Origin: Trypanosoma brucei
Taxonomy: Eukaryota
Assembly (NCBI GenBank): GCA_000002445.1
Contig: CP000068.1
Coordinates: 544,001 to 608,000, forward strand
Length of the DNA stretch: 64,000 bases
Direction of reading: 5' to 3'
The position numbers were made by a program, and so were the translations under genes. The first letter of the stretch is position 1. Every line of letters starts with the position of its first letter. Below, piece after piece: positions 1,301-47,076 of the stretch. The notes beneath the pieces are model-generated. The model was not told where the DNA came from and searched no databases. It was given only the letters and a program-made list of their open reading frames with translations.

Positions 1301-1352
1301 CTTCCTTCTCTATGCGCATTTATTATCATTTTCCTTTTCCCCCCTTTCTGCT
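1301..1352 (+). promoter_or_regulatory. Polypyrimidine tract upstream of the 1498 gene; a candidate trans-splicing / polyadenylation-coupling signal.
   Basis: A run of more than 90% C/T (ccttccttctctatgcgcatttattatcattttccttttcccccctttctgc) followed by AG dinucleotides before the ATG. Confidence 0.5.
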
Positions 1353-1450
1353 ACAGAGGTTACTTATCTCCTTTCGAGTGCTTACCTCACTGCCTCGTTG
1401 AAGGAGTTGCGTGTTTATCCCGTTCGCACAATACTGACAAAAGTGGAATA

Positions 1451-1497: not shown

Positions 1498-1995
1498 ATG
1501 TTTGGTTCCCGGAAGGCGTCTCGACGCAGGTCGTACAGGAGCAGGTCGACAATGGGGTCACGTGTGGATATTGATTTTTGTAAGTTTGAGGAACCTCCGT
1601 CACCACGGGAAGGGGAGAGACGCTGCTTATTTGTACTTGATCCACTTGAGCACTACGTGGAGAGCAAAGATCGCATGGTGGAATTACTACCGGGACGTGT
1701 GGAGACGGTTGATGGTGTGAATACATATTACATCAATGGGTGTACCACAGAAGAGAAGTTTCCTGGACTTGATTACACTTGTTACAGGGTGGATCTCCGA
1801 GACACGTACCGATCGCGATGCGCAGTACCACCTGAGGCCACACCTGAGGAGAAATTTATTTCACATCGACACCGAAAGTTGATCCCGTACAACAGTCGGA
1901 AGCCGGTGGTGGTTTACCTGCCCGAGGACGCCCAGTTGCACTACCGTATTTGGACGGGTGGCCAGGAGGTGGTGGCCAAGAAAGCCGAAGAATAA
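1498..1995 (+). CDS. Small conserved hypothetical protein (165 aa); paralogue of the 39505..39969 gene.
   Basis: ATG at 1498 directly after an A/C-rich microsatellite, with a polypyrimidine tract further upstream (1301-1352). Shares collinear motifs with the 39505 ORF: [17 protein letters not shown], and [36 protein letters not shown]. Confidence 0.6.
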   Translation: [165 protein letters not shown]

Positions 1996-16899: not shown

Positions 16900-19740
16900 T
16901 CGTGTGTGTATGTGTGTGTGCTATTGATGTGCTTGCTTCCAACAACACTCGTTCTGTCTACCTTTGTTTACTCTTGTTAGACTCTCGAAGCGATTACCGT
17001 GCAATATTTCGTTGATAACAAGGTGGAATGATGTGTACCGCAACCGTTATGAGGACTCCCTCTGCGGTTTTGTGCCTGCTGCTTGCGGCAACCCTGACTC
17101 TCAGCACTCCCGTTGCCGTTCGCGGGGAAGTGCTTAAGGATGCGACCCCTACAGTTGTGACAGTCTGGTATAACGCCACGAGCGGCGGTTTCTATGCTAC
17201 GGATGGTCTTGCATCTGGTAAGTATGCTGCAATCGTGAATGTGAGTAACACTTTCAACAAGACCGGTTGGGACGTTGTGACTGCTGTGGCAAACGATGGT
17301 TTCATGCATTTGCCTGGAGAAGCGGAACCGTCAGCAGAGCGCGTGCTACTGGCATACAAGGCTGTAGGTTTTGGTGAAGGCTACGCCACGTATGAGAGCA
17401 TGAAGGCTTCCATAAACAATACGTTTGAGGGTCCTGAGGGTCTCTCTGCGCTTTTGTCTGATGCGCCGCAGGCACAACACTGGATTGAAGAGCACGTTCG
17501 GTATATGGACGCTGCGAAGTTCGAGAGCAGTGCATTCTACACCCAGCTGCGAAACATGTTAGCTCTCATTGATGGTATGGTTGCTGGTTACAACGCTCGT
17601 GCCCCTGCTGACGAACGGTTGGATCGGATGAAGCTGTTAATGTACAACATGCAAGCAGAGATTGGTGACATTGTGAGGGCCACATCCCCTGCGGAGGTAT
17701 TGGATGATATGCGTCAGATGATGCCGCGGTGGTTTGTTGACACCCACTGTTCTGCCTTTGTAAAGGTCGTAAAGGATGACATCTACTTTGGTCACGCCAC
17801 GTGGAGCAGCTTCAATACTATGTTGAGGCAGTACAAAACGTATGCCTTCGGCGGGCGCTTCGTTACCATGTCATCTTACCCAGGTTTGGCGCACAGTGTG
17901 GATGATTGGTACATGACACACAAGCGCCTCGCAGTCATGGAGACCACCAACGTCATACACAATGCAACGCTGCTGCGCAACCATGTCGGTTCCTCTAGCG
18001 TGGCTACGTTTCTGCGTGCGATGATCGCGAACTTCATTGCGGTGGACGCCCCCTCATGGGTGTCGAACTTCAGCAGGGAAAGCAGTGGGGCGTACAACAA
18101 TCAGTGGATGGTGCTCAACATGGGTGCAGTGGAGTCCGAGGCGATGTTTAAAAACATGGCACCCAACACCTTTTGGGTGTTAGAGCAGCTCCCTGGTACT
18201 GCTCCTCCGTTGGGTATAACATCTAAGGATATGACCAGCGTGCTGAACACCACTGGGTACTGGGCGAGTTATAACAGACCGTACTTCCCCAATGTGTACA
18301 ATCTTTCAGGTACGCTGAAGATGCAGGAGGAATACGGTGACTTCTATTCTTACAAGAATTACTCACGCGCCCGGATATTTGAACGTGATCAGGGTTCTGT
18401 GGTCGATATTGAAAGCATGAAGAGGCTGATGCGTTACAACAACTACACGAAAGACCCATTTTCTCTTATTCCCAACTGCACTGGTGCTGTTGGTATGGAT
18501 GACGATGGTAATGTGACTAATGTCTGCAAGCCTCCATACAGTGCGATGCTTTCAATCGCAGCACGTGGTGATTTGAACCCTCCTGGTAATGCGACCGAGT
18601 ACGGCCCACTTGTCCGAAGTGTAGGACACGTAAATAGTGGAGCTATCGATGCAAAGATAGCGACGTGGACGGGGATGGTGAAGAATCCTGAAAGTTATAC
18701 TGCTCATGTTGTCTGTGGCCCGACGACCGATAATCAACCACCGTTTCAGTGGGTGGACGGCATGTTCGATCCCATGCCCCCAACATATGGGTTGCTGAAA
18801 TTGTATAACTTTAGCTTCGTAGTCATGGAGACGCCGATCCGACCTTCCGGTGGTAGTAATAGTTGGAGGAGCACTGGCATCATTGCTGTTGTGGCGGCGC
18901 TGGTTGTGGGTGTGATTGCCGTCGTCCTCATGCGTCCGAGGCGGCGTACCGAAGAGGATGAACTTCTTCCCGAAGAGGCTGAAGGTCTTATAGATCCTCA
19001 GAACTAGAAGCTATGATAATGACGCACTTACCTCTCCTCTCTTCCCGAGGTGTAGATATTGCTGAACTGATGTGATGTGCGGTGGGGAGCTGAGAGGTGC
19101 ACCAGATGCAATGTACCAATGCTTTAAATGAACATTGTGTCTCCTCTGCTATGTAGGTAGTAGTTTTTATACTTGAGGGAGTAGCGTGTCTGTGTGTGGT
19201 TGCTCTGTGCTTGAAAGGGAGTGTGATGAGCGCTCCGGTTCCCGCAGAATCGGTTACAACTAAGGTAACTCTCTCCCTGATTTTGCTTGCTTCCTACGGG
19301 GATTCATATGAGGCCCGTAATGACGGAAAAAGAAGGTGCGAGAAAGAATGGTAAGTGTAAAAAATGGGAATGGTAATAAGCGATGGATGTAGGAAGTGAG
19401 GTGTATAGGAATAGAAGAGATGAATGTGCCCGCGCGTGAATATGTTGTGGTGGTACCAGCGATGTGGCATGTAGTGTTGGGGCGCAGTGTAGAGAAAGGA
19501 AGAGATCAGTTGCCGCATAGTTGATGCAGCACTCCTCCCCATATCTTCTACATCCTCCTCTAGTCGTACGTTAACGCGTGGTGATTCCCTCGCATGCCAT
19601 TGCCGCTGTTGCCAGTGCTGTGTTCCGTCCGTTCTGTGCGTCCCGTGAGTAATACACGGCGTAGTGTTGCATTGTTTTTGTTTTTGTTTTTGCTTACCTT
19701 CCTTTTGTTCCAACGCACATTCCAATGCGTGTGTTTTTTT
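16900..19740 (+). repeat. Segmental duplication unit A: the p67 gene plus about 130 bp of 5' flank and about 730 bp of 3' flank.
   Basis: Near-identical to 20980..23816, with a period of 4,070 bp. Identity begins at gtgtatgtgtgtgtgctattgatg and ends at ccaatgcgtgtgtttttt. Confidence 0.9.
17028..19007 (+). CDS. p67: Lysosomal/endosomal type-I membrane glycoprotein p67 (a phospholipase-B-like lumenal domain); canonical copy, 659 aa.
   Basis: An N-terminal signal peptide (MMCTATVMRTPSAVLCLLLAATLTLS), many NxS/T sequons, and a PLB-like core containing the NNQWMVLN motif. A single C-terminal TM helix (IIAVVAALVVGVIAVVLM) is followed by a 24-residue tail, RPRRRTEEDELLPEEAEGLIDPQN, which carries two dileucine-type motifs. 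The 659-aa length and tail match what I recall of T. brucei p67. Confidence 0.85.
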   Translation: MMCTATVMRTPSAVLCLLLAATLTLSTPVAVRGEVLKDATPTVVTVWYNATSGGFYATDGLASGKYAAIVNVSNTFNKTGWDVVTAVANDGFMHLPGEAEPSAERVLLAYKAVGFGEGYATYESMKASINNTFEGPEGLSALLSDAPQAQHWIEEHVRYMDAAKFESSAFYTQLRNMLALIDGMVAGYNARAPADERLDRMKLLMYNMQAEIGDIVRATSPAEVLDDMRQMMPRWFVDTHCSAFVKVVKDDIYFGHATWSSFNTMLRQYKTYAFGGRFVTMSSYPGLAHSVDDWYMTHKRLAVMETTNVIHNATLLRNHVGSSSVATFLRAMIANFIAVDAPSWVSNFSRESSGAYNNQWMVLNMGAVESEAMFKNMAPNTFWVLEQLPGTAPPLGITSKDMTSVLNTTGYWASYNRPYFPNVYNLSGTLKMQEEYGDFYSYKNYSRARIFERDQGSVVDIESMKRLMRYNNYTKDPFSLIPNCTGAVGMDDDGNVTNVCKPPYSAMLSIAARGDLNPPGNATEYGPLVRSVGHVNSGAIDAKIATWTGMVKNPESYTAHVVCGPTTDNQPPFQWVDGMFDPMPPTYGLLKLYNFSFVVMETPIRPSGGSNSWRSTGIIAVVAALVVGVIAVVLMRPRRRTEEDELLPEEAEGLIDPQN

Positions 19741-20979: not shown

Positions 20980-23816
20980 ATGTGTGTGTGCTATTGATGT
21001 GCTTGCTTCCAACAACACTCGTTCTGTCTACCTTTGTTTACTCTTGTTAGACTCTCGAAGCGATTACCGTGCAATATTTCGTTGATAACAAGGTGGAATG
21101 ATGTGTACCGCAACCGTTATGAGGACTCCCTCTGCGGTTTTGTGCCTGCTGCTTGCGGCAACCCTGACTCTCAGCACTCCCGTTGCCGTTCGCGGGGAAG
21201 TGCTTAAGGATGCGACCCCTGCAGTTGTGACAGTCTGGTATAACGCCACGAGCGGCGGTTTCTATGCTACGGATGGTCTTGCATCTGGTAAGTATGCTGC
21301 AATCGTGAATGTGAGTAACACTTTCAACAAGACCGGTTGGGACGTTGTGACTGCTGTGGCAAACGATGGTTTCATGCATTTGCCTGGAGAAGCGGAACCG
21401 TCAGCAGAGCGCGTGCTACTGGCATACAAGGCTGTAGGTTTTGGTGAAGGCTACGCCACGTATGAGAGCATGAAGGCTTCCATAAACAATACGTTTGAGG
21501 GTCCTGAGGGTCTCTCTGCGCTTTTGTCTGATGCGCCGCAGGCACAACACTGGATTGAAGAGCACGTTCGGTATATGGACGCTGCGAAGTTCGAGAGCAG
21601 TGCATTCTACACCCAGCTGCGAAACATGTTAGCTCTCATTGATGGTATGGTTGCTGGTTACAACGCTCGTGCCCCTGCTGACGAACGGTTGGATCGGATG
21701 AAGCTGTTAATGTACAACATGCAAGCAGAGATTGGTGACATTGTGAGGGCCACATCCCCTGCGGAGGTATTGGATGATATGCGTCAGATGATGCCGCGGT
21801 GGTTTGTTGACACCCACTGTTCTGCCTTTGTAAAGGTCGTAAAGGATGACATCTACTTTGGTCACGCCACGTGGAGCAGCTTCAATACTATGTTGAGGCA
21901 GTACAAAACGTATGCCTTCGGCGGGCGCTTCGTTACCATGTCATCTTACCCAGGTTTGGCGCACAGTGTGGATGATTGGTACATGACACACAAGCGCCTC
22001 GCAGTCATGGAGACCACCAACGTCATACACAATGCAACGCTGCTGCGCAACCATGTCGGTTCCTCTAGCGTGGCTACGTTTCTGCGTGCGATGATCGCGA
22101 ACTTCATTGCGGTGGACGCCCCCTCATGGGTGTCGAACTTCAGCAGGGAAAGCAGTGGGGCGTACAACAATCAGTGGATGGTGCTCAACATGGGTGCAGT
22201 GGAGTCCGAGGCGATGTTTAAAAACATGGCACCCAACACCTTTTGGGTGTTAGAGCAGCTCCCTGGTACTGCTCCTCCGTTGGGTATAACATCTAAGGAT
22301 ATGACCAGCGTGCTGAACACCACTGGGTACTGGGCGAGTTATAACAGACCGTACTTCCCCAATGTGTACAATCTTTCAGGTACGCTGAAGATGCAGGAGG
22401 AATACGGTGACTTCTATTCTTACAAGAATTACTCACGCGCCCGGATATTTGAACGTGATCAGGGTTCTGTGGTCGATATTGAAAGCATGAAGAGGCTGAT
22501 GCGTTACAACAACTACACGAAAGACCCATTTTCTCTTATTCCCAACTGCACTGGTGCTGTTGGTATGGATGACGATGGTAATGTGACTAATGTCTGCAAG
22601 CCTCCATACAGTGCGATGCTTTCAATCGCAGCACGTGGTGATTTGAACCCTCCTGGTAATGCGACCGAGTACGGCCCACTTGTCCGAAGTGTAGGACACG
22701 TAAATAGTGGAGCTATCGATGCAAAGATAGCGACGTGGACGGGGATGGTGAAGAATCCTGAAAGTTATACTGCTCATGTTGTCTGTGGCCCGACGACCGA
22801 TAATCAACCACCGTTTCAGTGGGTGGACGGCATGTTCGATCCCATGCCCCCAACATATGGGTTGCTGAAATTGTATAACTTTAGCTTCGTAGCCATGGAG
22901 ACGCCGTTTTTTAAAAGCGATGTTGTCGACGTAGTTTGGTGGATTATTTCGGGAATTGGAATAGGAGCTACTATTTTATTACTATCTATTGTTCTTTATT
23001 ATAATACCGAGTGTAGTGTCGGTGTTGATGAGGATGAACTTCTTCCCGAAGAGGCTGAAGGTCTTATAGATCCTCAGAACTAGAAGCTATGATAATGACG
23101 CACTTACCTCTCCTCTCTTCCCGAGGTCTAGATATTGCTGAACTGATGTGATGTGCGGTGGGGAGCTGAGAGGTGCACCAGATGCAATGTACCAATGCTT
23201 TAAATGAACATTGTGTCTCCTCTGCTATGTAGGTAGTAGTTTTTATACTTGAGGGAGTAGCGTGTCTGTGTGTGGTTGCTCTGTGCTTGAAAGGGAGTGT
23301 GATGAGCGCTCCGGTTCCCGCAGAATCGGTTACAACTAAGGTAACTCTCTCCCTGATTTTGCTTGCTTCCTACGGGGATTCATATGAGGCCCGTAATGAC
23401 GGAAAAAGAAGGTGCGAGAAAGAATGGTAAGTGTAAAAAATGGGAATGGTAATAAGCGATGGATGTAGGAAGTGAGGTGTATAGGAATAGAAGAGATGAA
23501 TGTGCCCGCGCGTGAATATGTTGTGGTGGTACCAGCGATGTGGCATGTAGTGTTGGGGCGCAGTGTAGAGAAAGGAAGAGATCAGTTGCCGCATAGTTGA
23601 TGCAGCACTCCTCCCCATATCTTTTACATCCTCCTCTAGTCGTACGTTAACGCGTGGTGATTCCCTCGCATGCCATTGCCGCTGTTGCCAGTGCTGTGTT
23701 CCGTCCGTTCTGTGCGTCCCGTGAGTAATACACGGCGTAGTGTTGCATTGTTTTTGTTTTTGTTTTTGCTTACCTTCCTTTTGTTCCAACGCACATTCCA
23801 ATGCGTGTGTTTTTTA
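20980..23816 (+). repeat. Segmental duplication unit B: the second p67 gene plus flanks.
   Basis: Same boundaries as unit A, with only a few SNPs in the flanks (for example gaggtgtagat versus gaggtctagat), apart from the replaced TM-encoding patch at 22907-23029. Confidence 0.9.
21098..23083 (+). CDS. p67: p67 paralogue (661 aa). It is identical to copy 1 except for T41A, a V-to-A change, and a replaced transmembrane segment (FFKSDVVDVVWWIISGIGIGATILLLSIVLYYNTECSVGVD).
   Basis: The nucleotide sequence is near-identical to 17028..18836. The two copies diverge over about 120 bp (22907-23029) and reconverge on the shared tail, DEDELLPEEAEGLIDPQN. Confidence 0.85.
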   Translation: MMCTATVMRTPSAVLCLLLAATLTLSTPVAVRGEVLKDATPAVVTVWYNATSGGFYATDGLASGKYAAIVNVSNTFNKTGWDVVTAVANDGFMHLPGEAEPSAERVLLAYKAVGFGEGYATYESMKASINNTFEGPEGLSALLSDAPQAQHWIEEHVRYMDAAKFESSAFYTQLRNMLALIDGMVAGYNARAPADERLDRMKLLMYNMQAEIGDIVRATSPAEVLDDMRQMMPRWFVDTHCSAFVKVVKDDIYFGHATWSSFNTMLRQYKTYAFGGRFVTMSSYPGLAHSVDDWYMTHKRLAVMETTNVIHNATLLRNHVGSSSVATFLRAMIANFIAVDAPSWVSNFSRESSGAYNNQWMVLNMGAVESEAMFKNMAPNTFWVLEQLPGTAPPLGITSKDMTSVLNTTGYWASYNRPYFPNVYNLSGTLKMQEEYGDFYSYKNYSRARIFERDQGSVVDIESMKRLMRYNNYTKDPFSLIPNCTGAVGMDDDGNVTNVCKPPYSAMLSIAARGDLNPPGNATEYGPLVRSVGHVNSGAIDAKIATWTGMVKNPESYTAHVVCGPTTDNQPPFQWVDGMFDPMPPTYGLLKLYNFSFVAMETPFFKSDVVDVVWWIISGIGIGATILLLSIVLYYNTECSVGVDEDELLPEEAEGLIDPQN

Positions 23817-25184: not shown

Positions 25185-25920
25185 GTTACTAAAATAGTAG
25201 AGAATTGTGTGTGTGGAACCTCCTGCCCAACTTTAGCCGCATTTTTCTTTTTTACTTTCTCAGTCATTTGTTTTCCCGACTCCGTTTGGTCTTTTTTGTT
25301 TCTTTGTTTTGTTATTATTATCATTATTACCTTAGGTGCCGAAGAGGGACGTACAAGCGCCCCTCTTTTCCCCCCATCAACCCCCCCAAAAAAAAGTGAA
25401 TATTTAAGTTACCAGTACCAACATCAAAAGTGTCATAAAACAGTGAAAGTTTGATTTCAACTAGGCGTGCGTTGCAAGTGGGCAAAGAAAATAAATAAAT
25501 AAATAATAATAGCGAGGAAATATATCGCAGTCCGTGAGGAAAAAAAAACGGTAGAAAAAAACGAAAGAGGTTGGGAGGAACTTAACTGACGCAAAGGAGA
25601 AAAAGGAAAAAGAAAAGAGCAGCGTTCTCCTTAGCCAACACCCTCGTTTACTTATTGGCTCATTTTCTTTTTTTTAAAGAGCTCGTTTTTGTATTTTCAT
25701 TGCTTGAACTACGTTATTATTATTGCAGGCAGTGGAAGAGGAAGGGCGGACGAAAAAAAAAACAAGAAAACAGGACTGAAGCATTTTGGGGATATTTTCT
25801 TTCTTTTTGTTACTCCTTCTGCACAAGTACGCAACGAAAAACTACGGGGGAAAAAACTGTTTTGTCCATAAATATCAATATAAAAATATATCTGTTGAAA
25901 ACACGTGCATCAGCGTCGTG

Positions 25921-28900
25921 ATGCAACAACAGCAACAACAGAAACACTTGGTAGGCTCCGGCGCTACGAACAACACAATGGGTAGAGTTGATTTCTTACA
26001 ATTACCCGCTTCATGTAATGCTGAAGGCAGCAGCAGGTGGCGTTGGCGGTTTCAAACACAGCAACAGCGGCATCAACACGGTGACAGTGACAGCGGTGAA
26101 GGTGAAGATGGAGGAGTTTTTTATAACGTTCAGAGAGTTGAGGATGATGGGAAGGAGACTGACATCATGTATGTTGCTAAAACTATAGGAAACGAAGTGC
26201 TTCACCATGAAGTAACCCCACGTTACCCAAACAGTCGCAGCTCCATAAATGACGAGTTATCATCTGCGACCGGAAGCAGCAGCAGCAATGATATATGTGA
26301 GGAGCCCCTCCCTCTTTACTTTATCCGTAATGCGGGGAAGCGCAGGATCGGCCCCGTGTGCGAGTCCGTCACGGAGAAAGAACGAACCCACTTTTCCACC
26401 GAGAGTGTCAGAAAAGCCGATATTACCCCGCCTACTGAACCTTTACAGGTGGAAATAATATCAAAACGAACCTCATACATCGGCTTACATGTATTTCAGG
26501 AACAGAATGAGATTGTGGCGCACGTAGAAGAAGAGAAACACAGCAGCGACGATTCCGATTACCGAGAACAACGTGAAGGCGACACCCCAATGGTCCCAAG
26601 CTTTGTGTACTACAGTGCGCCGCGCCGCGGGCAACACACTTCTGAAAGCGAGGAATATGCCACAGAGTTTGATGAGAGTTGCGCACCAGCAACAAACAAT
26701 GAACACCACCACGCGTCACCACTAAAACCAACACTAATAAAAAAACGATGTTATATACCTGTACCCTCACCACCCGAAGGCCATACAAAGGTCAGCATGA
26801 GTTACCATACATCCATACAATCAGCAACACCACCTTCGGAAATAACATCGCCATTGCAAGTTAGCTTTATACGCAGCAAGTTATGCGGTAACTACAGGTC
26901 AGAAGCTGAGGCACAGCTTCCGATGAGTATTGAAGCGATAAAAGGTGCTTTCCAGAGGTCAGATAAGTCAGCAAAAGCAACGCTGCCCCCGTCTATGAGA
27001 CGGCAAGCAAGGGAGTGCAAGCCACAGCGTCAGCAGCAACCTGAATGCTTTCGTGAGCGAAGAGAAGTAAGTTCTTCTTCATCTGAAGACGAATACAACG
27101 GAGTGATGATACCCGCAAAAGAAGGCAGGAGGAATGCACACACATTTAAAAAGGTTAACACTGTCAGAGAACAAGAACACAAAAACGGGGGTCTAAAAGA
27201 AGAGCAACAGATGAGGGAGAGCGATATTCAAAAGAATAGAGCACAACAAGTTGTTTTTGGTTTTATGCCAAAGCAAAATCACAAACACACAGAGGTGCAC
27301 GAAGCATGTGATGAGCAAATGCCAGTGAGTGTGTGTGGTATTCTCGAACAACCACTTTCTATGGCTCATGTGTTTGACAGCTTAATGAAAGATGCGGAGG
27401 TGCACGAAGCATGTGATGAGCAAATGCCAGTGAATGTGTGTGATATTCTCGAACAACCACTTTCTATGGCTCATGTGTTTGACAGCTTAATGAAAGATGC
27501 GGAGGTGCACGAAGCATGTGATGAGCAAATGCCAGTGAATGTGTGTGATATTCTCGAACAACCACTTTCCATGGCTCATGTGTTTGACAGCTTAATGAAA
27601 GATGCGGAGGTGCACGAAGCATGTGATGAGCAAATGCCAGTGAATGTGTGTGATATTCTCGAACAACCACTTTCTATGGCTCATGTGTTTGACAGCTTAA
27701 TGAAAGATGCGGAGGTGCACGAAGCATGTGATGAGCAAATGCCAGTGAGTGTGTGTGATATTCTCGAACAACCACTTTCCATGGCTCATGTGTTTGACAG
27801 CTTAATGAAAGATGCGGAGGTGCACGAAGCATGTGATGAGCAAATGCCAGTGAGTGTGTGTGGTATTCTCGAACAACCACTTTCCATGGCTCATGTGTTT
27901 GACAGCTTAATGAAAGATGCGGAGGTGCACGAAGCATGTGATGAGCAAATGCCAGTGAATGTGTGTGATATTCTCGAACAACCACTTTCTATGGCTCATG
28001 TGTTTGACAGCTTAATGAAAGATGCGGAGGTGCACGAAGCATGTGATGAGCAAATGCCAGTGAATGTGTGTGATATTCTCGAACAACCACTTTCCATGGC
28101 TCATGTGTTTGACAGCTTAATGAAAGATGCGGAGGTGCACGAAGCATGTGATGAGCAAATGCCAGTGAATGTGTGTGATATTCTCGAACAACCACTTTCT
28201 ATGGCTCATGTGTTTGACAGCTTAATGAAAGATGCGGAGGTGCACGAAGCATGTGATGAGCAAATGCCAGTGAGTGTGTGTGATATTCTCGAACAACCAC
28301 TTTCCATGGCTCATGTGTTTGACAGCTTAATGAAAGATGCGGAGGTGCACGAAGCATGTGATGAGCAAATGCCAGTGAATGTGTGTGATATTCTCGAACA
28401 ACCACTTTCTATGGCTCATGTGTTTGACAGCTTAATGAAAGATGCGGAGGTGCACGAAGCATGTGATGAGCAAATGCCAGTGAATGTGTGTGATATTCTC
28501 GAACAACCACTTTCCATGGCTCATGTGTTTGACAGCTTAATGAAAGATGCGGAGGTGCACGAAGCATGTGATGAGCAAATGCCAGTGAGTGTGTGTGATA
28601 TTCTCGAACAACCACTTTCCATGGCTCATGTGTTTGACAGCTTAATGAAAGATGCGGAGGTGCACGAAGCATGTGATGAGCAAATGCCAGTGAGTGTGTG
28701 TGGTATTCTCGAACAACCACTTTCCATGGCTCATGTGTTTGACAGCTTAATGAAAGATGCGGAGGTGCACGAAGCATGTGATGAGCAAATGCCAGTGAGT
28801 GTGTGTGGTATTCTCGAACAACCACTTTCCATGGCTCATGTGTTTGACAGCTTAATGAAAGATGCGGAGGTGCACGAAGCATGTGATGAGCAAATGCCAG

Positions 28901-31900
28901 TGAATGTGTGTGGTATTCTCGAACAACCACTTTCTATGGCTCATGTGTTTGACAGCTTAATGAAAGATGCGGAGGTGCACGAAGCATGTGATGAGCAAAT
29001 GCCAGTGAATGTGTGTGATATTCTCGAACAACCACTTTCCATGGCTCATGTGTTTGACAGCTTAATGAAAGATGCGGAGGTGCACGAAGCATGTGATGAG
29101 CAAATGCCAGTGAGTGTGTGTGGTATTCTCGAACAACCACTTTCCATGGCTGATGTGTTTGACAGCTTAATGAAAGATGCGGAGGTGCACGAAGCATGTG
29201 ATGAGCAAATGCCAGTGAATGTGTGTGGTATTCTCGAACAACCACTTTCCATGGCTCATGTGTTTGACAGCTTAATGAAAGATGCGGAGGTGCACGAAGC
29301 ATGTGATGAGCAAATGCCAGTGAATGTGTGTGATATTCTCGAACAACCACTTTCCATGGCTCATGTGTTTGACAGCTTAATGAAAGATGCGGAGGTGCAC
29401 GAAGCATGTGATGAGCAAATGCCAGTGAGTGTGTGTGGTATTCTCGAACAACCACTTTCTATGGCTCATGTGTTTGACAGCTTAATGAAAGATGCGGAGG
29501 TGCACGAAGCATGTGATGAGCAAATGCCAGTGAGTGTGTGTGGTATTCTCGAACAACCACTTTCCATGGCTCATGTGTTTGACAGCTTAATGAAAGATGC
29601 GGAGGTGCACGAAGCATGTGATGAGCAAATGCCAGTGAATGTGTGTGATATTCTCGAACAACCACTTTCCATGGCTCATGTGTTTGACAGCTTAATGAAA
29701 GATGCGGAGGTGCACGAAGCATGTGATGAGCAAATGCCAGTGAGTGTGTGTGGTATTCTCGAACAACCACTTTCTATGGCTCATGTGTTTGACAGCTTAA
29801 TGAAAGATGCGGAGGTGCACGAAGCATGTGATGAGCAAATGCCAGTGAATGTGTGTGATATTCTCGAACAACCACTTTCTATGGCTCATGTGTTTGACAG
29901 CTTAATGAAAGATGCGGAGGTGCACGAAGCATGTGATGAGCAAATGCCAGTGAATGTGTGTGATATTCTCGAACAACCACTTTCCATGGCTGATGTGTTT
30001 GACAGCTTAATGAAAGATGCGGAGGTGCACGAAGCATGTGATGAGCAAATGCCAGTGAGTGTGTGTGGTATTCTCGAACAACCACTTTCCATGGCTCATG
30101 TGTTTGACAGCTTAATGAAAGATGCGGAGGTGCACGAAGCATGTGATGAGCAAATGCCAGTGAGTGTGTGTGGTATTCTCGAACAACCACTTTCCATGGC
30201 TCATGTGTTTGACAGCTTAATGAAAGATGCGGAGGTGCACGAAGCATGTGATGAGCAAATGCCAGTGAATGTGTGTGATATTCTCGAACAACCACTTTCC
30301 ATGGCTGATGTGTTTGACAGCTTAATGAAAGATGCGGAGGTGCACGAAGCATGTGATGAGCAAATGCCAGTGAGTGTGTGTGGTATTCTCGAACAACCAC
30401 TTTCTATGGCTCATGTGTTTGACAGCTTAATGAAAGATGCGGAGGTGCACGAAGCATGTGATGAAAAAACAATCTTACTTGTTGTGCGTGAGACAAATGT
30501 GGTTGTACATCAACTGTGCGCTGAGAGAGAGCTGTCTCCGCTATTGAGGTTTGGTCGGTATTTGAAGTCGGTTATTGGTACCGTTTGCAGTGTTGTAGGT
30601 GGGGTAGTCGGGTTAGGGACTTTATCTCCCCATCTTTTTAAGGGCTTCGTCGTGGAGGGGAAGAAGACTTCGTGTTTAATACCGAGGGTTTCTGGATATC
30701 CCTTCAAGAAGTGCTCTTACTTACCAAAGGGGTCATTGATGGTTGTTATGTTGATGGATGCTGAAGGGCGGCAGGTCCTCACAAAACATTTCGTATTGAA
30801 TAGTGGTAGCCTTGGTCTTTTCAAGGAATTAACTGTAATGGCAGATGAGGATGCGGCCTCGCGGCAGGACAGGGTGTTGAACGTAAGCCGAAGGTTGCGA
30901 AATGCCGTAAAACTCATTGGTGGTATCGAGGGTTGTGTGAGTGTGGCAGATTCACCTCAGAACCCGGGGAGGTTGAGGCTCCAAGTGATGCCGAGGCACG
31001 TTCGCACCTCCAAGCTGATTTCGTTGTGGGAAGTGAGCGTGATTCCTAGTATAATAATCACCGAAATTGCAAGTAAGCCGGACCTTTTTTTGTTTAGTTT
31101 GAGTGGTGGGATTGCACACTATTCCATGAAAGTCCCCCGTGCCGCATGTAGAGGCGACACGCGTAACATGTCGTGGATTTATGAAAAAGGAGAGATTCAA
31201 ACTGACGCATTGGATAAGCTGTCGGTGCGACGATGCCGACACAGACCCAACTGTGGAGATGGGTTGTCCACCCATTGTTTGACTGTAGAGGCGGTGCAAA
31301 ACCTTATGCACGGTGAAATGGTGGAAGTCGGCCTCGAGCATCTTTCCGGTTCCAAGGGGGAAACGTCGAGGCAAGAGTGCGGTAACTCTTTGACAAATGG
31401 AAGAGGGAGGTCAACCTCATCAGTTGCAATATCTGCAGTACCAGACGTGAGAGAGTCCGCTATCGACGACCAGGTTATGAGGGTGGTGCCGTGGTCGCCA
31501 AGCGCATTCGTGCGTGACCCGATAGTATCGCGGGATCGACGGGTTCTTGGCCACAGCGATGCTCCGCGGCTGTCGCCGTCGTTAGGCTCACTGTCCTTAG
31601 CGACAGGTGAAAGTGACCAGCATCCAGCGCACTGCGCATTGGTACGACTGGGGCCGTTGTCGTCGGCAAAACAGGAAACCAGGACCAACGAAAACCGGGT
31701 GGGGGCACTGCAGGTCGCCGGGGACGACACAAGCTTGAATGGGTTGTATGAACGAAAGAGATTGGGTCTACTGGACTTCGTGCGAGCTGGCAGACCTGAC
31801 GCCCCAAAAACCAAGGTCCTTTCCGACAGAACGCAGAGCGGAAGTGACTCTCCACAAGGAATGGGCGTTCGGCTGCCGCGTACGGCTGTTGCCAGACAAT

Positions 31901-33795
31901 TCCTTCCCGATCGAACGTACGGTGGTGTCGAGAGTGCCATTTTTGGTTGTGATGTGTCTCAGTGGCCTGGTGATTTTGAGAAACGGGAACAGCATTGTCA
32001 GAAAAGCCTCTCAGACATCATACCCATCACTCAGCGGGAGGCAGAGGAGTTAGGGAGAGAGCGACACTTCATCGAGAGGATACTCGGCAAGGCATCACGC
32101 CTAAGCCAACGTAACGTGACAGTGAGGGAGGTTGAGGCTGACGAGGTAGCAATGGAGTTGATATTTCAAAGCGAGGATCTCTCTCAGGCGTACAAGTGTC
32201 AAGTCTCACTTCTTGCTAAAGCATACCTTGAGGAGGTTGAGGCTGCGGCTGTTCGACGGGTTATCGAATTGTCTAGGGGCTCCCCTCGTGCGGATACTTT
32301 ACAACATGCGCTGGCGGTACGTGAAGGTCGGCGGATGCAACTTTCAGAGAAGGCAGCAAACGAGATGAAGGCTGGGACTGCTATTCATAACGGTCCAATC
32401 GACAGAGCCAACCCCCGTGGCGTGCCCCAGCCCTGGGCGCACCTGTGCCACCACGATCTAGTGGCAGATGGCAACGCACAAGCTATCGCTGCTGCTTGTA
32501 GAGGTGCCCAGCATTTTGGCACGAAAATGTTTGCGTACATTTGTGAGCTGTCGAAACAGAAGGAGGAGAAGAATGAGTCAATTTTCAATAAGTACCCATT
32601 CTTACCGCCGCTACCGTACGGTGTTCCTCTGTCGGACATAGAACTTTCCACCGACCTGGAGTTTAGGCAGTGTGCACTCAAGCTACGGGAGAATCCCAAC
32701 GACGAAGGCAGTAAAGATGAGATGCGCTGTATTGTGTTACGACTTGCAAAGGTCCATGCGATCGACCGCGTTAACACGGCTCCCGAAGGGTTAAGAGGGC
32801 TGTGGGATACAATTTTGCAACATCATCCTGTATCCGAGTGTGATAACGGGAGTGGCTTCTATGGCAACACTGCGGTTTGTGTTGATGAGGATCGTCTCCC
32901 GCAGCTTACTGGCCCAACTGTTGCCGATGTGAGAGTACTGCGGGGATTGGGCGGTGGGTCTGCTTATAAGCAATTCATTGCCTGTTGCAGGAAAGACCTA
33001 CCCTGCGCGTTGAAACGGTGGGGCACGCAGCTGGCACTTGGTGGAGCTGATGCTTTTCACTTAAGCACAGAGGACCTCGGACTCATCAGGGGTTTCTATA
33101 ATGGCGCAGCAGGGGGCAGTGGCAAGTTGTTGAGCTACGGAAACTTCGAGGAGTTTTTGGTGCAAACTCTGGGAAGTCGTCCAGACGTAACATTAGCGGG
33201 GCTCAACCAGCTGCTCCAAACGACATTTGCAGCACTGAGTAGACCACATGTTGTAAAGTTTGATGACTTTACCCAGTTCCTTACGGCGCTTGCTGCTTGC
33301 GAGTATCTTGGTGGTGGCAACCCTCTTCCAGCAGTGAGACGGCGCCCTGCTGGGAAACTGGCCCCTCTGCTGGTAACACCTCCTCGTGCATCCGTGGCGA
33401 CGCGTTTCCCCGATTCGTCGAGACATCGCTTCGATTTAGTCCCACTCTGCCCAAGAGAAACACGGTTACAGCCTTTAAGGGTTAATAAGACAACTGACTC
33501 TCCTGTGCCTGTATCGGTCGCCTCTGAAACGACAGAGGTGACTACGTTTGCAGGTGATGGTGCACACGAGCGGCGGTGCAGCACCGGAGCTGGTGGTGCG
33601 TTCCGACGCGCCGCGCTGCAGCGGCCATCAACTGCTCAGTGGAGCGTTGTGCCGAGAGAACGTGTTCCGCAACACGCGTCACCGCCCTTGATGCCACGCA
33701 ACGCAGAGGTATGGACACCTGAGGTTACTGGAAAAAGCGGAAGTGAGTCTGTTACGCCTGAAAGCACATCGGAATCGGGAAATGAAGAGGCGTAA
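25921..33795 (+). CDS. Very large repetitive protein (about 2,625 aa). It contains 30 tandem copies of a 35-aa unit, EVHEACDEQMPV[S/N]VC[G/D]ILEQPLSMA[H/D]VFDSLMKDA, between an N-terminal Q/S-rich region and a roughly 1,100-aa unique C-terminal region.
   Basis: A single 8 kb + strand ORF. The track start at 25786 is a TTG within a pyrimidine tract, and the first ATG is at 25921 (MQQQQQQKH). The repeats span 27292-30465. Confidence 0.7.
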   Translation: MQQQQQQKHLVGSGATNNTMGRVDFLQLPASCNAEGSSRWRWRFQTQQQRHQHGDSDSGEGEDGGVFYNVQRVEDDGKETDIMYVAKTIGNEVLHHEVTPRYPNSRSSINDELSSATGSSSSNDICEEPLPLYFIRNAGKRRIGPVCESVTEKERTHFSTESVRKADITPPTEPLQVEIISKRTSYIGLHVFQEQNEIVAHVEEEKHSSDDSDYREQREGDTPMVPSFVYYSAPRRGQHTSESEEYATEFDESCAPATNNEHHHASPLKPTLIKKRCYIPVPSPPEGHTKVSMSYHTSIQSATPPSEITSPLQVSFIRSKLCGNYRSEAEAQLPMSIEAIKGAFQRSDKSAKATLPPSMRRQARECKPQRQQQPECFRERREVSSSSSEDEYNGVMIPAKEGRRNAHTFKKVNTVREQEHKNGGLKEEQQMRESDIQKNRAQQVVFGFMPKQNHKHTEVHEACDEQMPVSVCGILEQPLSMAHVFDSLMKDAEVHEACDEQMPVNVCDILEQPLSMAHVFDSLMKDAEVHEACDEQMPVNVCDILEQPLSMAHVFDSLMKDAEVHEACDEQMPVNVCDILEQPLSMAHVFDSLMKDAEVHEACDEQMPVSVCDILEQPLSMAHVFDSLMKDAEVHEACDEQMPVSVCGILEQPLSMAHVFDSLMKDAEVHEACDEQMPVNVCDILEQPLSMAHVFDSLMKDAEVHEACDEQMPVNVCDILEQPLSMAHVFDSLMKDAEVHEACDEQMPVNVCDILEQPLSMAHVFDSLMKDAEVHEACDEQMPVSVCDILEQPLSMAHVFDSLMKDAEVHEACDEQMPVNVCDILEQPLSMAHVFDSLMKDAEVHEACDEQMPVNVCDILEQPLSMAHVFDSLMKDAEVHEACDEQMPVSVCDILEQPLSMAHVFDSLMKDAEVHEACDEQMPVSVCGILEQPLSMAHVFDSLMKDAEVHEACDEQMPVSVCGILEQPLSMAHVFDSLMKDAEVHEACDEQMPVNVCGILEQPLSMAHVFDSLMKDAEVHEACDEQMPVNVCDILEQPLSMAHVFDSLMKDAEVHEACDEQMPVSVCGILEQPLSMADVFDSLMKDAEVHEACDEQMPVNVCGILEQPLSMAHVFDSLMKDAEVHEACDEQMPVNVCDILEQPLSMAHVFDSLMKDAEVHEACDEQMPVSVCGILEQPLSMAHVFDSLMKDAEVHEACDEQMPVSVCGILEQPLSMAHVFDSLMKDAEVHEACDEQMPVNVCDILEQPLSMAHVFDSLMKDAEVHEACDEQMPVSVCGILEQPLSMAHVFDSLMKDAEVHEACDEQMPVNVCDILEQPLSMAHVFDSLMKDAEVHEACDEQMPVNVCDILEQPLSMADVFDSLMKDAEVHEACDEQMPVSVCGILEQPLSMAHVFDSLMKDAEVHEACDEQMPVSVCGILEQPLSMAHVFDSLMKDAEVHEACDEQMPVNVCDILEQPLSMADVFDSLMKDAEVHEACDEQMPVSVCGILEQPLSMAHVFDSLMKDAEVHEACDEKTILLVVRETNVVVHQLCAERELSPLLRFGRYLKSVIGTVCSVVGGVVGLGTLSPHLFKGFVVEGKKTSCLIPRVSGYPFKKCSYLPKGSLMVVMLMDAEGRQVLTKHFVLNSGSLGLFKELTVMADEDAASRQDRVLNVSRRLRNAVKLIGGIEGCVSVADSPQNPGRLRLQVMPRHVRTSKLISLWEVSVIPSIIITEIASKPDLFLFSLSGGIAHYSMKVPRAACRGDTRNMSWIYEKGEIQTDALDKLSVRRCRHRPNCGDGLSTHCLTVEAVQNLMHGEMVEVGLEHLSGSKGETSRQECGNSLTNGRGRSTSSVAISAVPDVRESAIDDQVMRVVPWSPSAFVRDPIVSRDRRVLGHSDAPRLSPSLGSLSLATGESDQHPAHCALVRLGPLSSAKQETRTNENRVGALQVAGDDTSLNGLYERKRLGLLDFVRAGRPDAPKTKVLSDRTQSGSDSPQGMGVRLPRTAVARQFLPDRTYGGVESAIFGCDVSQWPGDFEKREQHCQKSLSDIIPITQREAEELGRERHFIERILGKASRLSQRNVTVREVEADEVAMELIFQSEDLSQAYKCQVSLLAKAYLEEVEAAAVRRVIELSRGSPRADTLQHALAVREGRRMQLSEKAANEMKAGTAIHNGPIDRANPRGVPQPWAHLCHHDLVADGNAQAIAAACRGAQHFGTKMFAYICELSKQKEEKNESIFNKYPFLPPLPYGVPLSDIELSTDLEFRQCALKLRENPNDEGSKDEMRCIVLRLAKVHAIDRVNTAPEGLRGLWDTILQHHPVSECDNGSGFYGNTAVCVDEDRLPQLTGPTVADVRVLRGLGGGSAYKQFIACCRKDLPCALKRWGTQLALGGADAFHLSTEDLGLIRGFYNGAAGGSGKLLSYGNFEEFLVQTLGSRPDVTLAGLNQLLQTTFAALSRPHVVKFDDFTQFLTALAACEYLGGGNPLPAVRRRPAGKLAPLLVTPPRASVATRFPDSSRHRFDLVPLCPRETRLQPLRVNKTTDSPVPVSVASETTEVTTFAGDGAHERRCSTGAGGAFRRAALQRPSTAQWSVVPRERVPQHASPPLMPRNAEVWTPEVTGKSGSESVTPESTSESGNEEA
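27292..30465 (+). repeat. Tandem array of 30 copies of a 105-bp coding unit, plus 24 bp of a 31st copy.
   Basis: By direct reading, the distance from the first GAG GTG CAC to the last is 3,150 bp, exactly 30 x 105. The units are more than 97% identical. Variable codons are agt/aat, ggt/gat and cat/gat, plus a silent tct/tcc. Confidence 0.95.
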
Positions 33796-39504: not shown

Positions 39505-39969
39505 ATGACAGACCGACCTCCGACACTCGCTGACTTCAAGGCCCCTTACCCTGAGCCGGGTCCCGACCAGACCTGCTGCATTATACTGCTCGAAGAGAAA
39601 CCAGATGAAGAGGAAAACTACCGAGTGGAGCTCATCCCAGGTCGTGTGATGGAGGATGGGTTGGCCACGGGTACGGTCTCCGGCGTGGTGAGGGAGGAGG
39701 TTATTCACGGCTGGGGATATAGCTACTACGTGGTAGAGATGGAGCCACTCGTAACCACGCGTAGATCAATCCGTTCTTTCCACCGACCGACTCGTTTCGT
39801 CCCCGTTCCGACCAAGCACTTCATTCGTTACAACAGCCAACTACCAGTGGTAGTGTATCTCCCCCATAATACGGAGCTGAGGTATCGCGTGTGGACACCC
39901 ATTGATATGCAGAAGGTGGAACCCACAGAACCGGAGGGTCTGCTCAAGATCGAGGAGAGGGCGGGTTAG
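39505..39969 (+). CDS. Small conserved hypothetical protein (154 aa); paralogue of the 1498..1995 gene.
   Basis: ATG at 39505. Shares the ELIPGRV and PVVVYLP...LRYRVWT motifs in the same order as the 1498 gene. Confidence 0.6.
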   Translation: MTDRPPTLADFKAPYPEPGPDQTCCIILLEEKPDEEENYRVELIPGRVMEDGLATGTVSGVVREEVIHGWGYSYYVVEMEPLVTTRRSIRSFHRPTRFVPVPTKHFIRYNSQLPVVVYLPHNTELRYRVWTPIDMQKVEPTEPEGLLKIEERAG

Positions 39970-44168: not shown

Positions 44169-45099
44169 TCTTTCGTTTCTTGTCGCATTTGTCTTGTGAT
44201 GTGCTCCGCAAACTCATTAAGTTGTCATTGTGTTGATCTGTCATGTTTCCACCATCCCTCTGCCGCACATCAATGTCGTGTATGGTTACATCTGTAGCGT
44301 AAGAATCACAGTTTAACTCTAGGGAAGAGAGAATATGTGTAAGACCGACCGAACGCGAAGATATGAGGGTGTAAACGTTAGAAACGACTGAAAGGGAAGA
44401 TCTGCTCCTCAAAGGTGGTGAGGTTGGAAAGAAGTGAACCGTATCATGTGTAAATATGTGTTGCTGTGATTTTCACGCTCGAGCGTAAACGTCTGCGTGC
44501 GCGGTTCAGTGAGGAATGGGTCTGCTGTGCCCATTCAGCCTGTATTATTCCTCTTTCCCATTCCTTTCATTTCCCATCCGTGTTAAGTTTGTGGCCATTA
44601 CTTTGAACAGGCATGGATGATGCGGGGTATGGAAGGAAAAAGGGGTGTACGCCCTGCTGCAATGCGCACGGGACATTTAAGGGAGTGCGGCTGGGTGTTG
44701 ATGCAGCAAGAATATGTCACTTCGTTGTTCGTCACCTTTGCCTCTTTTTTGTTCACTTATGTGCACGTGTTTTTTCCCTCTTTCGTTTGATTACTTTAAT
44801 AATTTCGACTTGCTGTAGGACAACGTTTCTCACACTATCCATTCAGAACTTGCAGTTATCGCCTTCACAAAAGTAATGTGCGGAGCACTTAAACTGTGTG
44901 CATAGCAGTTAATGTATAATGACAACCTTTACTATCACCCGCGTTGTCGCTGCTTGTATTATCTGTTGTTTATTTATTTTTTTCTCTATGATGGAGAGGT
45001 ACTTTCGCGATTTTTTCCCCCTTCGCAATGGTCTCTTCGCGTCTATTCGTGCCAATGGGGATCCCTTTTGTTTCTCTTCTCCACTGCTTTGTTAATCCT

Positions 45100-45204
45100 T
45101 TTCTGTGTGTGTGTGTGTGCACATGTCATTTCCTGCTGTTCCCTCCTCCCACTTTTGCTCTCCGTCTCTCACCTTTTTTTTCCTTATTATTCTACTTTCC
45201 TGCT
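45100..45204 (+). promoter_or_regulatory. Polypyrimidine tract immediately upstream of the coiled-coil gene ATG at 45205.
   Basis: ttcctgctgttccctcctcccacttttgctctccgtctctcaccttttttttccttattattctactttcctgct. Confidence 0.55.
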
Positions 45205-47076
45205 ATGGCGAGAGTAGTAGGTGGCAAAAAGGGTAAAGGGCAAATGCACGAAGAGGACCCCGAAGTGGCCAAGTATAAGCAGAGCGTTATCGATGTGGGG
45301 CAACGAACACAGTTGGAGCTCCTGCAGGCAGAAGTGCGGCACAACAAAGAATGTCTCACAGCTTTGCGCCTGGAAAATAAACGACTTAATGTAATTCTTC
45401 AGCAGGCGCAGCGGGGTCAGCGACGCGGTGTAGAGATCGATCCGCTGCGCCGTGAGGAGGAGCAACTGCATAACAAACTTTGCTTGCTGAAGCGCAGCCT
45501 CAACAGTGTGCACGGAAAGAAAGAGGAGCTCACCAAAGAGATTGCGCGGACTGTAGAGGAGACGGGATATATTCTCCAGGAGGGAAAGTTCACAACGGAC
45601 AACTCCGCCATGGGCCAAAAGATTCGTGGCCTTGAGAACCGTTTGGACAAGTGCCTCATTAAGCACAACGAGGTGAATGCCATTCGCCGCACATACGAGG
45701 CGCTTTTGGAGCGGTTACAGCAAGAGCAGGCGGGATTTGATACTCAGCTCGCAGCAATGGAAAAAACGTTGCAGAACAAAGAGAAGGATCTCTGCGATCT
45801 CAACACAGTAGCAGCCGAGGCATCGAACGGAAGGGATGCGGCTAAGGCAGAGGTGCTGCGGCTGAAGGCACAACTTACGCGGGAGCGCCGGGCACAAAAT
45901 AAGGATCTGGAGGAGAGGCGGGCATTTGTGATGACGAAACAAAAACAGTTGGACCGCAAGGCGCAGCGGTTAAAGGATAAAATTGAAAGGGATGAGGAGC
46001 GTCGTGCTGGTCAGCACATGGCCGGTGGGAACCAACAAAAGAAAGTCTCTCGGGTGACCACACAGAAGCCAGAAAGGAGGGAGGATGTAGAGCAACAGCA
46101 GCAGCTGCGTGAGGCTTACAATAAACTCAAAGAGGTCACTATGAGTAACACAGTGGATGAAGTCATCTCAAAACTACAGGAGCGCCAGGATGCGAACGCC
46201 CAGCTAATGCAGACGGCGGAAGAGGCGGAGGAAGCAGATGCCATGCTAAAGGAGGAGCGAAGCCAACTTATGGAGGAGTGGGAGAAATTACAACAGCAGA
46301 ATGTTGTTCACAGGAGTGTGTTGAAGGGCGAAAACCAAAAGCCGCCGGCGACGGAAGAACGCACCACTGGGGGCGCGAACTCTGTCGCGAATGTTGCCGA
46401 GCAGCGCGCACTTGTGCGCCGCCGTGTGCTGGAAGAGTTTGAATCGTACCTCAACGATCGGAAGAACGAGCTTAATGTGGCGCAGCGCGTACAAGAGGGA
46501 CTTGGGCAGCTGCTGATGGATCTTGGCGCTGGCGTGCAGCGTCTAGCAGACACCGTGGCTTGTGCCACGATCAATGTCATGTCCGCTTCTACACACGTGT
46601 CGATGTTTGATGAGGTGTGTGAAGATGAATTAGCCTTCTGTAATGCACGCGGTGACTCAATCGTTAGCGTATTGAACTCGACGGCAGCAAAGCTGGAAAA
46701 TATGTTAGAGCTTGTGGATGTGGAGGATGTGGCATCGGTGGCGACGTCCATTTATAACTGGCGTTATTCTCTTCCTCCAACAAACGTATGCATTCGTCTC
46801 GAAACCTCCGCCACACCGGCAGATGGCGGGAGCGGTGAGTTGGGCAGTGATCACTCGGATTCCGGTGGTGTGAGCGGTAAAGGACGCCGCACTTCGGCGG
46901 ATGAAATGCCCGTCGGCTGCCGAAGATGGTTTGGACCAGCTCCTACCGACGATTTCCCAGAAAATGAAATTCACGATCGTCATGAGCTGAAGCAGATGTC
47001 CATCGCAACCGTAGAGAGGGAGCGGAAGAAAGCGCGGAAGCTGCAGCAGCAGCGAGTGAAGGATGAAACCATATGA
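45205..47076 (+). CDS. Coiled-coil protein (about 620 aa).
   Basis: The ORF track starts at 45028 inside a polypyrimidine tract. The first ATG after the tract is at 45205 (MARVVGGKKGKG). Heptad-rich E/K/R/L/Q sequence throughout. Confidence 0.55.
   Translation: MARVVGGKKGKGQMHEEDPEVAKYKQSVIDVGQRTQLELLQAEVRHNKECLTALRLENKRLNVILQQAQRGQRRGVEIDPLRREEEQLHNKLCLLKRSLNSVHGKKEELTKEIARTVEETGYILQEGKFTTDNSAMGQKIRGLENRLDKCLIKHNEVNAIRRTYEALLERLQQEQAGFDTQLAAMEKTLQNKEKDLCDLNTVAAEASNGRDAAKAEVLRLKAQLTRERRAQNKDLEERRAFVMTKQKQLDRKAQRLKDKIERDEERRAGQHMAGGNQQKKVSRVTTQKPERREDVEQQQQLREAYNKLKEVTMSNTVDEVISKLQERQDANAQLMQTAEEAEEADAMLKEERSQLMEEWEKLQQQNVVHRSVLKGENQKPPATEERTTGGANSVANVAEQRALVRRRVLEEFESYLNDRKNELNVAQRVQEGLGQLLMDLGAGVQRLADTVACATINVMSASTHVSMFDEVCEDELAFCNARGDSIVSVLNSTAAKLENMLELVDVEDVASVATSIYNWRYSLPPTNVCIRLETSATPADGGSGELGSDHSDSGGVSGKGRRTSADEMPVGCRRWFGPAPTDDFPENEIHDRHELKQMSIATVERERKKARKLQQQRVKDETI

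Follow-up and report, generated by a model that had tools for sequence, protein, structure and literature searches.

The stretch of Trypanosoma brucei DNA analysed here (the window, 64,000 nucleotides or 64 kb in length) contains two small open reading frames (ORFs) of the same family, both on the + strand. The first, at 1498..1995, encodes a protein of 165 aa with an ecotin domain at residues ~34-153 and corresponds to Tb927.5.1730 (UniProt ECOT4_TRYB2), here called ISP1; the second, at 39505..39969, encodes 154 aa with an ecotin domain at residues ~12-131 and corresponds to Tb927.5.1880 (UniProt ECOT2_TRYB2), here called ISP2. From start to start, the two ORFs lie 38,007 bp apart. A pair of related small proteins had been predicted from the sequence alone at exactly these two positions, on the basis of three ordered motifs common to both, and pairwise comparison bears this out: both ORFs are present and encode paralogues, with 44/128 identities (34%) and 53% positives (BLASTP, E = 9e-19). 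All three motifs were recovered, namely CLFVL (residues 43-47 of ISP1) versus CIILL (residues 25-29 of ISP2), VELLPGRVE (61-69) versus VELIPGRVM (41-49), and a 25-residue C-terminal block at residues 129-153 of ISP1 and 107-131 of ISP2. The alignment extends over nearly the entire domain, 128 residues that are not low-complexity sequence, which rules out low complexity as the source of the similarity. When each protein was searched against the whole window by tblastn, the sole match was the other copy (E ~3e-15), and a third, ISP3-like ecotin copy was not detected in the 64 kb with ISP1, ISP2 or Escherichia coli ecotin as query, nothing else appearing at E < 0.1. The idea that the similarity is due to chance or low complexity and that one ORF is not a real gene has a practically negligible probability, as it is contradicted by the pairwise E value of 9e-19 over 128 aligned residues, by the independent match of each ORF to the Ecotin profile, by the presence of both genes in intact form in T. 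b. gambiense, T. equiperdum, T. congolense and T. vivax, by the fact that all coding differences between subspecies are synonymous (three in ISP1, one in ISP2), and by the detection of the ISP2 protein of T. brucei (TbISP2) with monoclonal antibodies (PMC8248637).

In the window, the + strand carries every long ORF and every ORF with a Pfam match. This same-strand array is consistent with one polycistronic unit for ISP1 and ISP2, in agreement with the earlier proposal that the copies share a polycistron. Neighbouring genes include a BD-FAE hydrolase (5351), a pseudouridine synthase (8900), an AAA/Vps4_C ATPase (36340) and the signal peptidase subunit SPC22 (54332). A tandem pair of the Phospholipase_B family (PF04916, E ~1e-157) is found on the + strand at 17028..19007 and 21098..23083, encoding proteins of 659 and 661 aa that are 94% identical; their differences are confined to residues ~600-645 (predicted transmembrane segment and tail), the last 17 residues are identical and the repeat unit measures ~4.07 kb. 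We take this pair to be, probably, the genes of the lysosomal membrane glycoprotein p67 of T. brucei. Two further + strand ORFs match flagellar/axonemal families, at 45028..47076 (ODAD1 coiled coil, E = 4e-7) and at 55871..56446 (sperm microtubule inner protein SPMIP1, E = 2e-9), and these are simply part of the gene content of the unit. The spacing between ISP1 and ISP2 is 38.0 kb here, 38.9 kb in GCA_003543875.1 and 32.2 kb in T. b. gambiense (31 kb in PMC2659362). Between the two genes, the ORF at 25786..33795 (2669 aa, + strand) carries a 105-bp tandem repeat at 27292-30464 (30.2 copies, 98% matches), corresponding to a 35-aa protein repeat, and the gene at the same position in T. b. gambiense encodes 2031 aa. 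Part of the T. b. gambiense spacing difference is therefore explained by variation in repeat number in this protein.

In order to assign the pair to a family, both proteins were scanned against Pfam at E <= 1. ISP1 matched Ecotin (PF03974) with 117.1 bits (E = 6.1e-34) over residues 34-153, covering profile positions 6-121 of 122, and ISP2 matched with 126 bits (E = 1e-36) over profile positions 2-121 of 122, against a curated gathering cutoff of 22.2 bits. Searches of PDB sequences gave the same family: ISP2 aligned end to end with solved chains of "ecotin-like protein 2" (9h6o, 9h60 and 9h8w, E = 5e-32 to 3e-30) and matched E. coli ecotin at E = 1.7e-17, while ISP1 matched ecotin-like chains at ~1e-22, followed by the E. 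coli and Yersinia ecotins. An AlphaFold2 model of ISP1 had a mean pLDDT of 81, with residues 31-150 mostly at 88-95 (residues 51-60 at 72) and low values over the first ~30 residues. Foldseek returned 29 PDB matches for this model at E <= 0.001, all of them ecotin (TM on target 0.76-0.85, rmsd 1.4-2.7 A), so that, as modelled, ISP1 has the ecotin beta-sandwich fold. The exhaustive profile search that we used to collect homologues, which covered 1.84 billion representative proteins and yielded 605 ecotin family members at E <= 0.001, was needed because a word-indexed search, with only 2 matches to ISP1 and 12 to ISP2, recovered none of the Leishmania ISPs.

These results overturn two parts of the original prediction, which could name no family for the pair and left its function as unknown, offering as a weak possibility the small kinetoplastid calpain-related (domain-I-only, DUF1935) proteins. 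Each protein of the pair carries a full-length Ecotin domain and is hence clearly assigned to a characterised family. The calpain reading, which had rested on size and organism, is very improbable: Ecotin was the only profile matched by either protein at E <= 1, with no calpain or DUF1935 match, PDB sequence searches (E <= 1) ranked ecotins first and below them gave weak unrelated matches with no calpain, and every significant structural match of the ISP1 model was an ecotin.

The two genes have in fact been described before. By exact-sequence look-up, ISP1 is identical to AAZ11288.1, CBH11104.1, RHW72303.1 and SCU71856.1, and ISP2 to AAZ11303.1 and CBH11120.1 (ECOT2_TRYB2), the matches coming from T. 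brucei, T. b. gambiense and T. equiperdum. The database name on the entries identical to ISP1 is "inhibitor of serine peptidase (ISP), putative", and UniProt (ECOT4_TRYB2) lists as "Ecotin-like protein 4" what the literature calls ISP1. DNA identity over the first 12 kb of the window is 99.6% with a T. equiperdum contig, compared with 98.5% for chromosome 5 of T. b. gambiense (FN554968.1). Eschenlauer et al. (2009) named Tb927.5.1730 as ISP1 and Tb927.5.1880 as ISP2, at a locus syntenic with L. major ISP1 and ISP2/ISP3 (PMC2659362), and Levy et al. (2021) reported two ecotin-like genes on chromosome 5 and a TbISP2 of 17.8 kDa in which Arg87 takes the place of ecotin Met84 (PMC8248637); our computed mass for ISP2 is 17,810 Da, and Arg87 is present. 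Because the sequences are identical, the names and locus are those of PMC2659362, and the mass and Arg87 match PMC8248637, we have very little doubt that the window belongs to chromosome 5 of the T. brucei group and that the ORFs at 1498..1995 and 39505..39969 are the published ecotin-like genes ISP1 and ISP2, which encode members of a family of S1A serine-peptidase inhibitors (MEROPS I11/PF03974). The pair is thus already known, the genes having been described in 2009 and an ISP2 knockout studied in 2021, and we see no substantive difference from the published pair in protein sequence, chromosome 5 context, order or strand. Published identities are 54% for TbISP1 versus L. major ISP1 and 63% for TbISP2 versus L. 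major ISP2 (PMC8248637), above the 34% that we measured for ISP1 versus L. mexicana ISP1 and the 48% for ISP2 versus L. braziliensis ISP2, although the species differ; the paper may quote similarity.

The original prediction also held that the duplication is old and that both copies have been retained, and a search for kinetoplastid orthologues followed by a tree upholds this. In a neighbour-joining (NJ) tree that combined 30 domains of kinetoplastid type with 11 bacterial ones (500 bootstraps; top kinetoplastid matches named by exact look-up), ISP1 grouped with sequences of T. congolense, T. vivax and T. conorhini (99% bootstrap), and this Trypanosoma group joined the 146-aa ISP1-type sequences of Leishmaniinae (93%). 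ISP2 fell together with its counterparts in T. congolense and T. vivax (100%), the placement of this African-trypanosome clade relative to Leishmania ISP2 or ISP3 having a bootstrap of only 32%; in pairwise searches the best Leishmania match of ISP2 was ISP2 (48% identity, E = 2e-33), followed by ISP3 (39%) and ISP1 (34%). For ISP1, identity to L. mexicana ISP1 (34%) is lower than to L. braziliensis ISP2/3 (38-41%), and pairwise identity by itself is not diagnostic for its orthology.

Gene order adds a second, independent line of evidence. On L. mexicana chromosome 15, a 146-aa ecotin lies between orthologues of the window's upstream gene (53%) and of its downstream BD-FAE/alpha-beta hydrolase (53%), and the order RPA_C, PPR-like, upstream gene, ecotin, unnamed gene, BD-FAE hydrolase is shared between this locus and those of the T. 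brucei group. Similarly, the gene downstream of ISP2-ISP3 in L. braziliensis is orthologous (49-59% identity) to the one that encodes 1009 aa at 40817 in the window, and Tb927.5.1880 had been treated as ISP2 by synteny (PMC2659362). Synteny and tree together support positional orthology of ISP1 with Leishmania ISP1. Because of the 93% ISP1 clade, which unites Trypanosoma and Leishmaniinae, and the conserved gene order with Leishmania chromosome 15, we conclude that the ISP1/ISP2 duplication predates the split of Trypanosoma and Leishmania. The L. major ISP1 and ISP2/ISP3 genes also belong to one transcription unit (PMC2659362). Leishmania ISP1-3 are of the same family and, like the T. brucei pair, lack a signal peptide and the ecotin disulfide; the two genera differ in that Leishmania has an ISP3, whereas Trypanosoma has none (our tblastn search of the window; PMC2659362). 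Trypanosomatids probably obtained their ecotin gene through horizontal transfer from Proteobacteria (PMC2659362, PMC9904509). Stercorarian trypanosomes likewise have ISP1-type ecotins (P0021, P0164 and P0165, from T. conorhini and T. rangeli), which fall in the clade of T. brucei ISP1 with 99% bootstrap. For T. cruzi, both earlier studies (PMC2659362, PMC8248637) reported that no ISP1 could be detected; the gene may have been lost there or may be missing from the assembly.

Upstream of its ecotin domain, ISP1 carries an Arg/Ser-rich N-terminal extension (residues 1-26, pI 11.9), encoded at 1498..1575 on the + strand. It is predicted to be disordered, with pLDDT < 50 at residues 13-27, and could be a targeting signal. 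In the alignment, the ISP1 proteins of T. congolense and T. vivax carry a comparable basic extension, which that of L. mexicana lacks. Two Logan contigs have the gene called from Met19, whose ATG is at 1552 and gives a protein of 147 aa. However, the 165-aa form is probably the real one, because a sequence scan found no ATG between the putative trans-splice acceptor and position 1498, and because the extension differs from that of T. b. gambiense by two substitutions only, both synonymous. This acceptor, predicted from the same scan at 1329..1356 on the + strand, comprises a polypyrimidine tract at 1329-1349 and the first downstream AG at 1355-1356. The presumed 5' UTR also contains an (AAAAC)n/(CAA)n microsatellite at 1447-1497, directly before the start codon.

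We compared the regions that correspond to the inhibitory loops with those of E. coli ecotin, using a reference sequence checked to be that of PDB 1azz and 1ecy. The T. brucei pair has the same fold and domain length as E. coli ecotin, at 27-29% identity, and the core motifs VEL-x-G, RYNSKLP-VVY and YR-W are conserved, GWGY being kept in ISP2 only. The register of the reactive loop was taken from two MAFFT alignments, of 11 and 41 sequences, which are one residue apart. By alignment to E. coli ecotin Met84, the predicted reactive-site (80s-type) loop of ISP1 is S106-R107-C108-A109-V110-P111 (1813..1830, + strand), which the model shows without regular structure, flanked by strands 95-105 and 117-123. 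Its P1 residue would be C108 in the 11-sequence alignment and R107 in the 41-sequence alignment; an unusual Cys108 P1, which we had considered, was dropped as the larger alignment moves the register to Arg107. In ISP2 the predicted reactive-site residues are T85-R86-R87-S88 (39757..39768, + strand), with Arg at P1 in either register (R86 or R87), and Levy et al. (2021) gave Arg87 as the equivalent of ecotin Met84, that is, as P1 (PMC8248637). A basic P1 is found in either register in ISP2 of all three salivarian species (R/R in T. brucei, R/R in T. congolense, R/K in T. vivax), whereas ISP2 of Leishmaniinae has a non-basic P1 whichever register is used (Leu/Ala or Met; Met according to PMC8248637).

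The secondary site of ecotin, defined here as the 60s loop W67-G68-Y69-D70 and the 100s loop R108-L113, differs between the paralogues. ISP2 has kept its motifs, as GWGY and RYNSQLP, whereas ISP1 has GLDY and IPYNSRKP, with both Trp67 and Arg108 replaced. Trp67 is replaced in all four Trypanosoma ISP1 sequences (by L, L, M and H), unlike in L. mexicana ISP1, which keeps GWG, and the Arg108 position is Pro in ISP1 of T. brucei and T. congolense.

Neither ISP1 nor ISP2 has a Cys at the alignment columns of the Cys50-Cys87 disulfide of ecotin. Both cysteines are present in E. coli ecotin and in 6/10 bacterial-looking outgroup homologues, the other four having neither, and among the other kinetoplastid sequences examined only P0041 has a Cys at either column (the first). 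Trypanosomatid ISPs are known to differ as a subgroup in lacking this disulfide, which is no ground for excluding the pair from the ecotin family. No signal peptide was found in either protein, the maximum Kyte-Doolittle value of a 9-mer within the first ~40 residues being 0.27 in ISP1 and 1.54 in ISP2, where the segment concerned is the first beta-strand. The T. brucei pair therefore differs from E. coli ecotin, a periplasmic pan-S1A inhibitor with P1 Met84 and a disulfide, in having no classical secretion signal and no disulfide, in carrying Arg (ISP2) or Arg/Cys (ISP1) in place of Met84, and in belonging to a eukaryotic host.

In bacteria, the ecotin homodimer clamps two S1A proteases in an E2I2 tetramer, with exchange of the C-terminal arms. 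The reactive-site 80s loop acts as a substrate-like plug that places P1 in the S1 pocket of the protease, and the 60s and 100s loops of the other ecotin subunit, its secondary site, grip the same protease as well. Judging from family membership and loop sequences, the T. brucei ISPs would be canonical substrate-like inhibitors of chymotrypsin-fold (family S1A) peptidases, of host or vector. By analogy they may also dimerise as bacterial ecotin does, and the monomer model of ISP1 contains a C-terminal strand (146-153) and tail. Trypanosomatids reportedly have no S1A enzymes; these are absent from L. major, which makes host or vector enzymes the presumed targets (PMC2659362), and L. major ISP2 inhibits neutrophil elastase, trypsin and chymotrypsin (PMC2659362, PMC3440592). 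L. major ISP1 is ~10-fold weaker on neutrophil elastase (Ki ~107 nM) and does not inhibit trypsin, and its loss causes flagellar-homeostasis and flagellar-pocket phenotypes (PMC3440592). For T. brucei ISP1 and ISP2, we found no inhibition kinetics in the literature on these genes. The kept secondary-site motifs of ISP2, together with its Arg at P1, suggest an effective, even potent inhibitor that would be biased to Arg-specific trypsin-like host proteases, while ISP1, by comparison with its L. major counterpart, may be a weaker and more selective inhibitor with a role inside the cell, at the flagellum or flagellar pocket.

Several points count against this reading. The disulfide, which in ecotin braces the reactive loop, is lost from both proteins, and the P1 register shifts by one residue between alignments. 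The lack of a signal peptide and the localisation of TbISP2 as cytoplasmic puncta (PMC8248637) fit poorly with contact with extracellular proteases, and neutrophil elastase was apparently not the key TbISP2 target in the model of Levy et al. (PMC8248637). In its favour, T. b. rhodesiense ISP2 null parasites, which grew normally in vitro, gave lower parasitaemia, stronger early inflammation and longer survival in mice (PMC8248637).

An alternative is that ISP1 has kept the ecotin fold and is no longer an inhibitor, having been co-opted for a structural or regulatory function in the flagellum, the flagellar pocket or another compartment reached through its basic extension, so that ISP2 alone would inhibit. 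Such co-option would fit the replacement of secondary-site Trp67 in 4/4 Trypanosoma ISP1 sequences, the change of 100s-loop Arg108 to Pro in T. brucei and T. congolense, and the 26-residue Arg/Ser-rich extension (pI 11.9), which bacterial ecotin and Leishmania ISP1 lack; L. major ISP1 is likewise a poor inhibitor, with flagellar and flagellar-pocket phenotypes on its loss (PMC3440592). However, the reactive-loop region and the core (VELLPGRV, YNSxxPVVVY, YRIW) are still conserved in T. brucei ISP1, L. major ISP1 does retain inhibition of neutrophil elastase with that Ki of ~107 nM (PMC3440592), and the literature on Tb927.5.1730 yields no localisation or knockout data for T. brucei ISP1. We therefore regard complete loss of inhibition by ISP1 as unlikely, albeit with some points in its favour, and keep to the reading of both proteins as S1A inhibitors, ISP1 being the weaker.

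Regarding the targets of ISP2, the Foldseek matches of the ISP1 model in PDB included complexes of the engineered ecotin variant M84R with factor Xa and factor XIa. It is conceivable, and we offer it tentatively as possible rather than probable, that the basic P1 makes ISP2 of the salivarian trypanosomes, which are extracellular blood parasites, a natural counterpart of ecotin M84R, the targets of TbISP2 being Arg-specific plasma cascades (contact/kallikrein, coagulation, complement MASPs) and not neutrophil elastase, and, as a separate possibility, that ISP1 of Trypanosoma has given up inhibiting host proteases and taken on an internal function. The pair represents a textbook bacterial-type inhibitor gene that was acquired by trypanosomatids, duplicated and kept, and ISP2 has been published as a virulence factor of T. 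b. rhodesiense. To this the present analysis makes minor additions, namely the basic P1 of salivarian ISP2 and, in Trypanosoma ISP1, the degenerate secondary site and the basic N-terminal extension; these three could guide the choice of candidate host proteases for the T. brucei inhibitors.

Among the family members collected, many representatives of ~300-430 aa (P0019, P0020, P0026, P0030, P0032 and others) have two tandem ecotin domains and N-termini resembling signal peptides or those of lipoproteins, and look bacterial. A tandem two-domain ecotin would amount to a covalent, "pre-dimerised" form of the inhibitor, and thus to a variation on the dimer mechanism.
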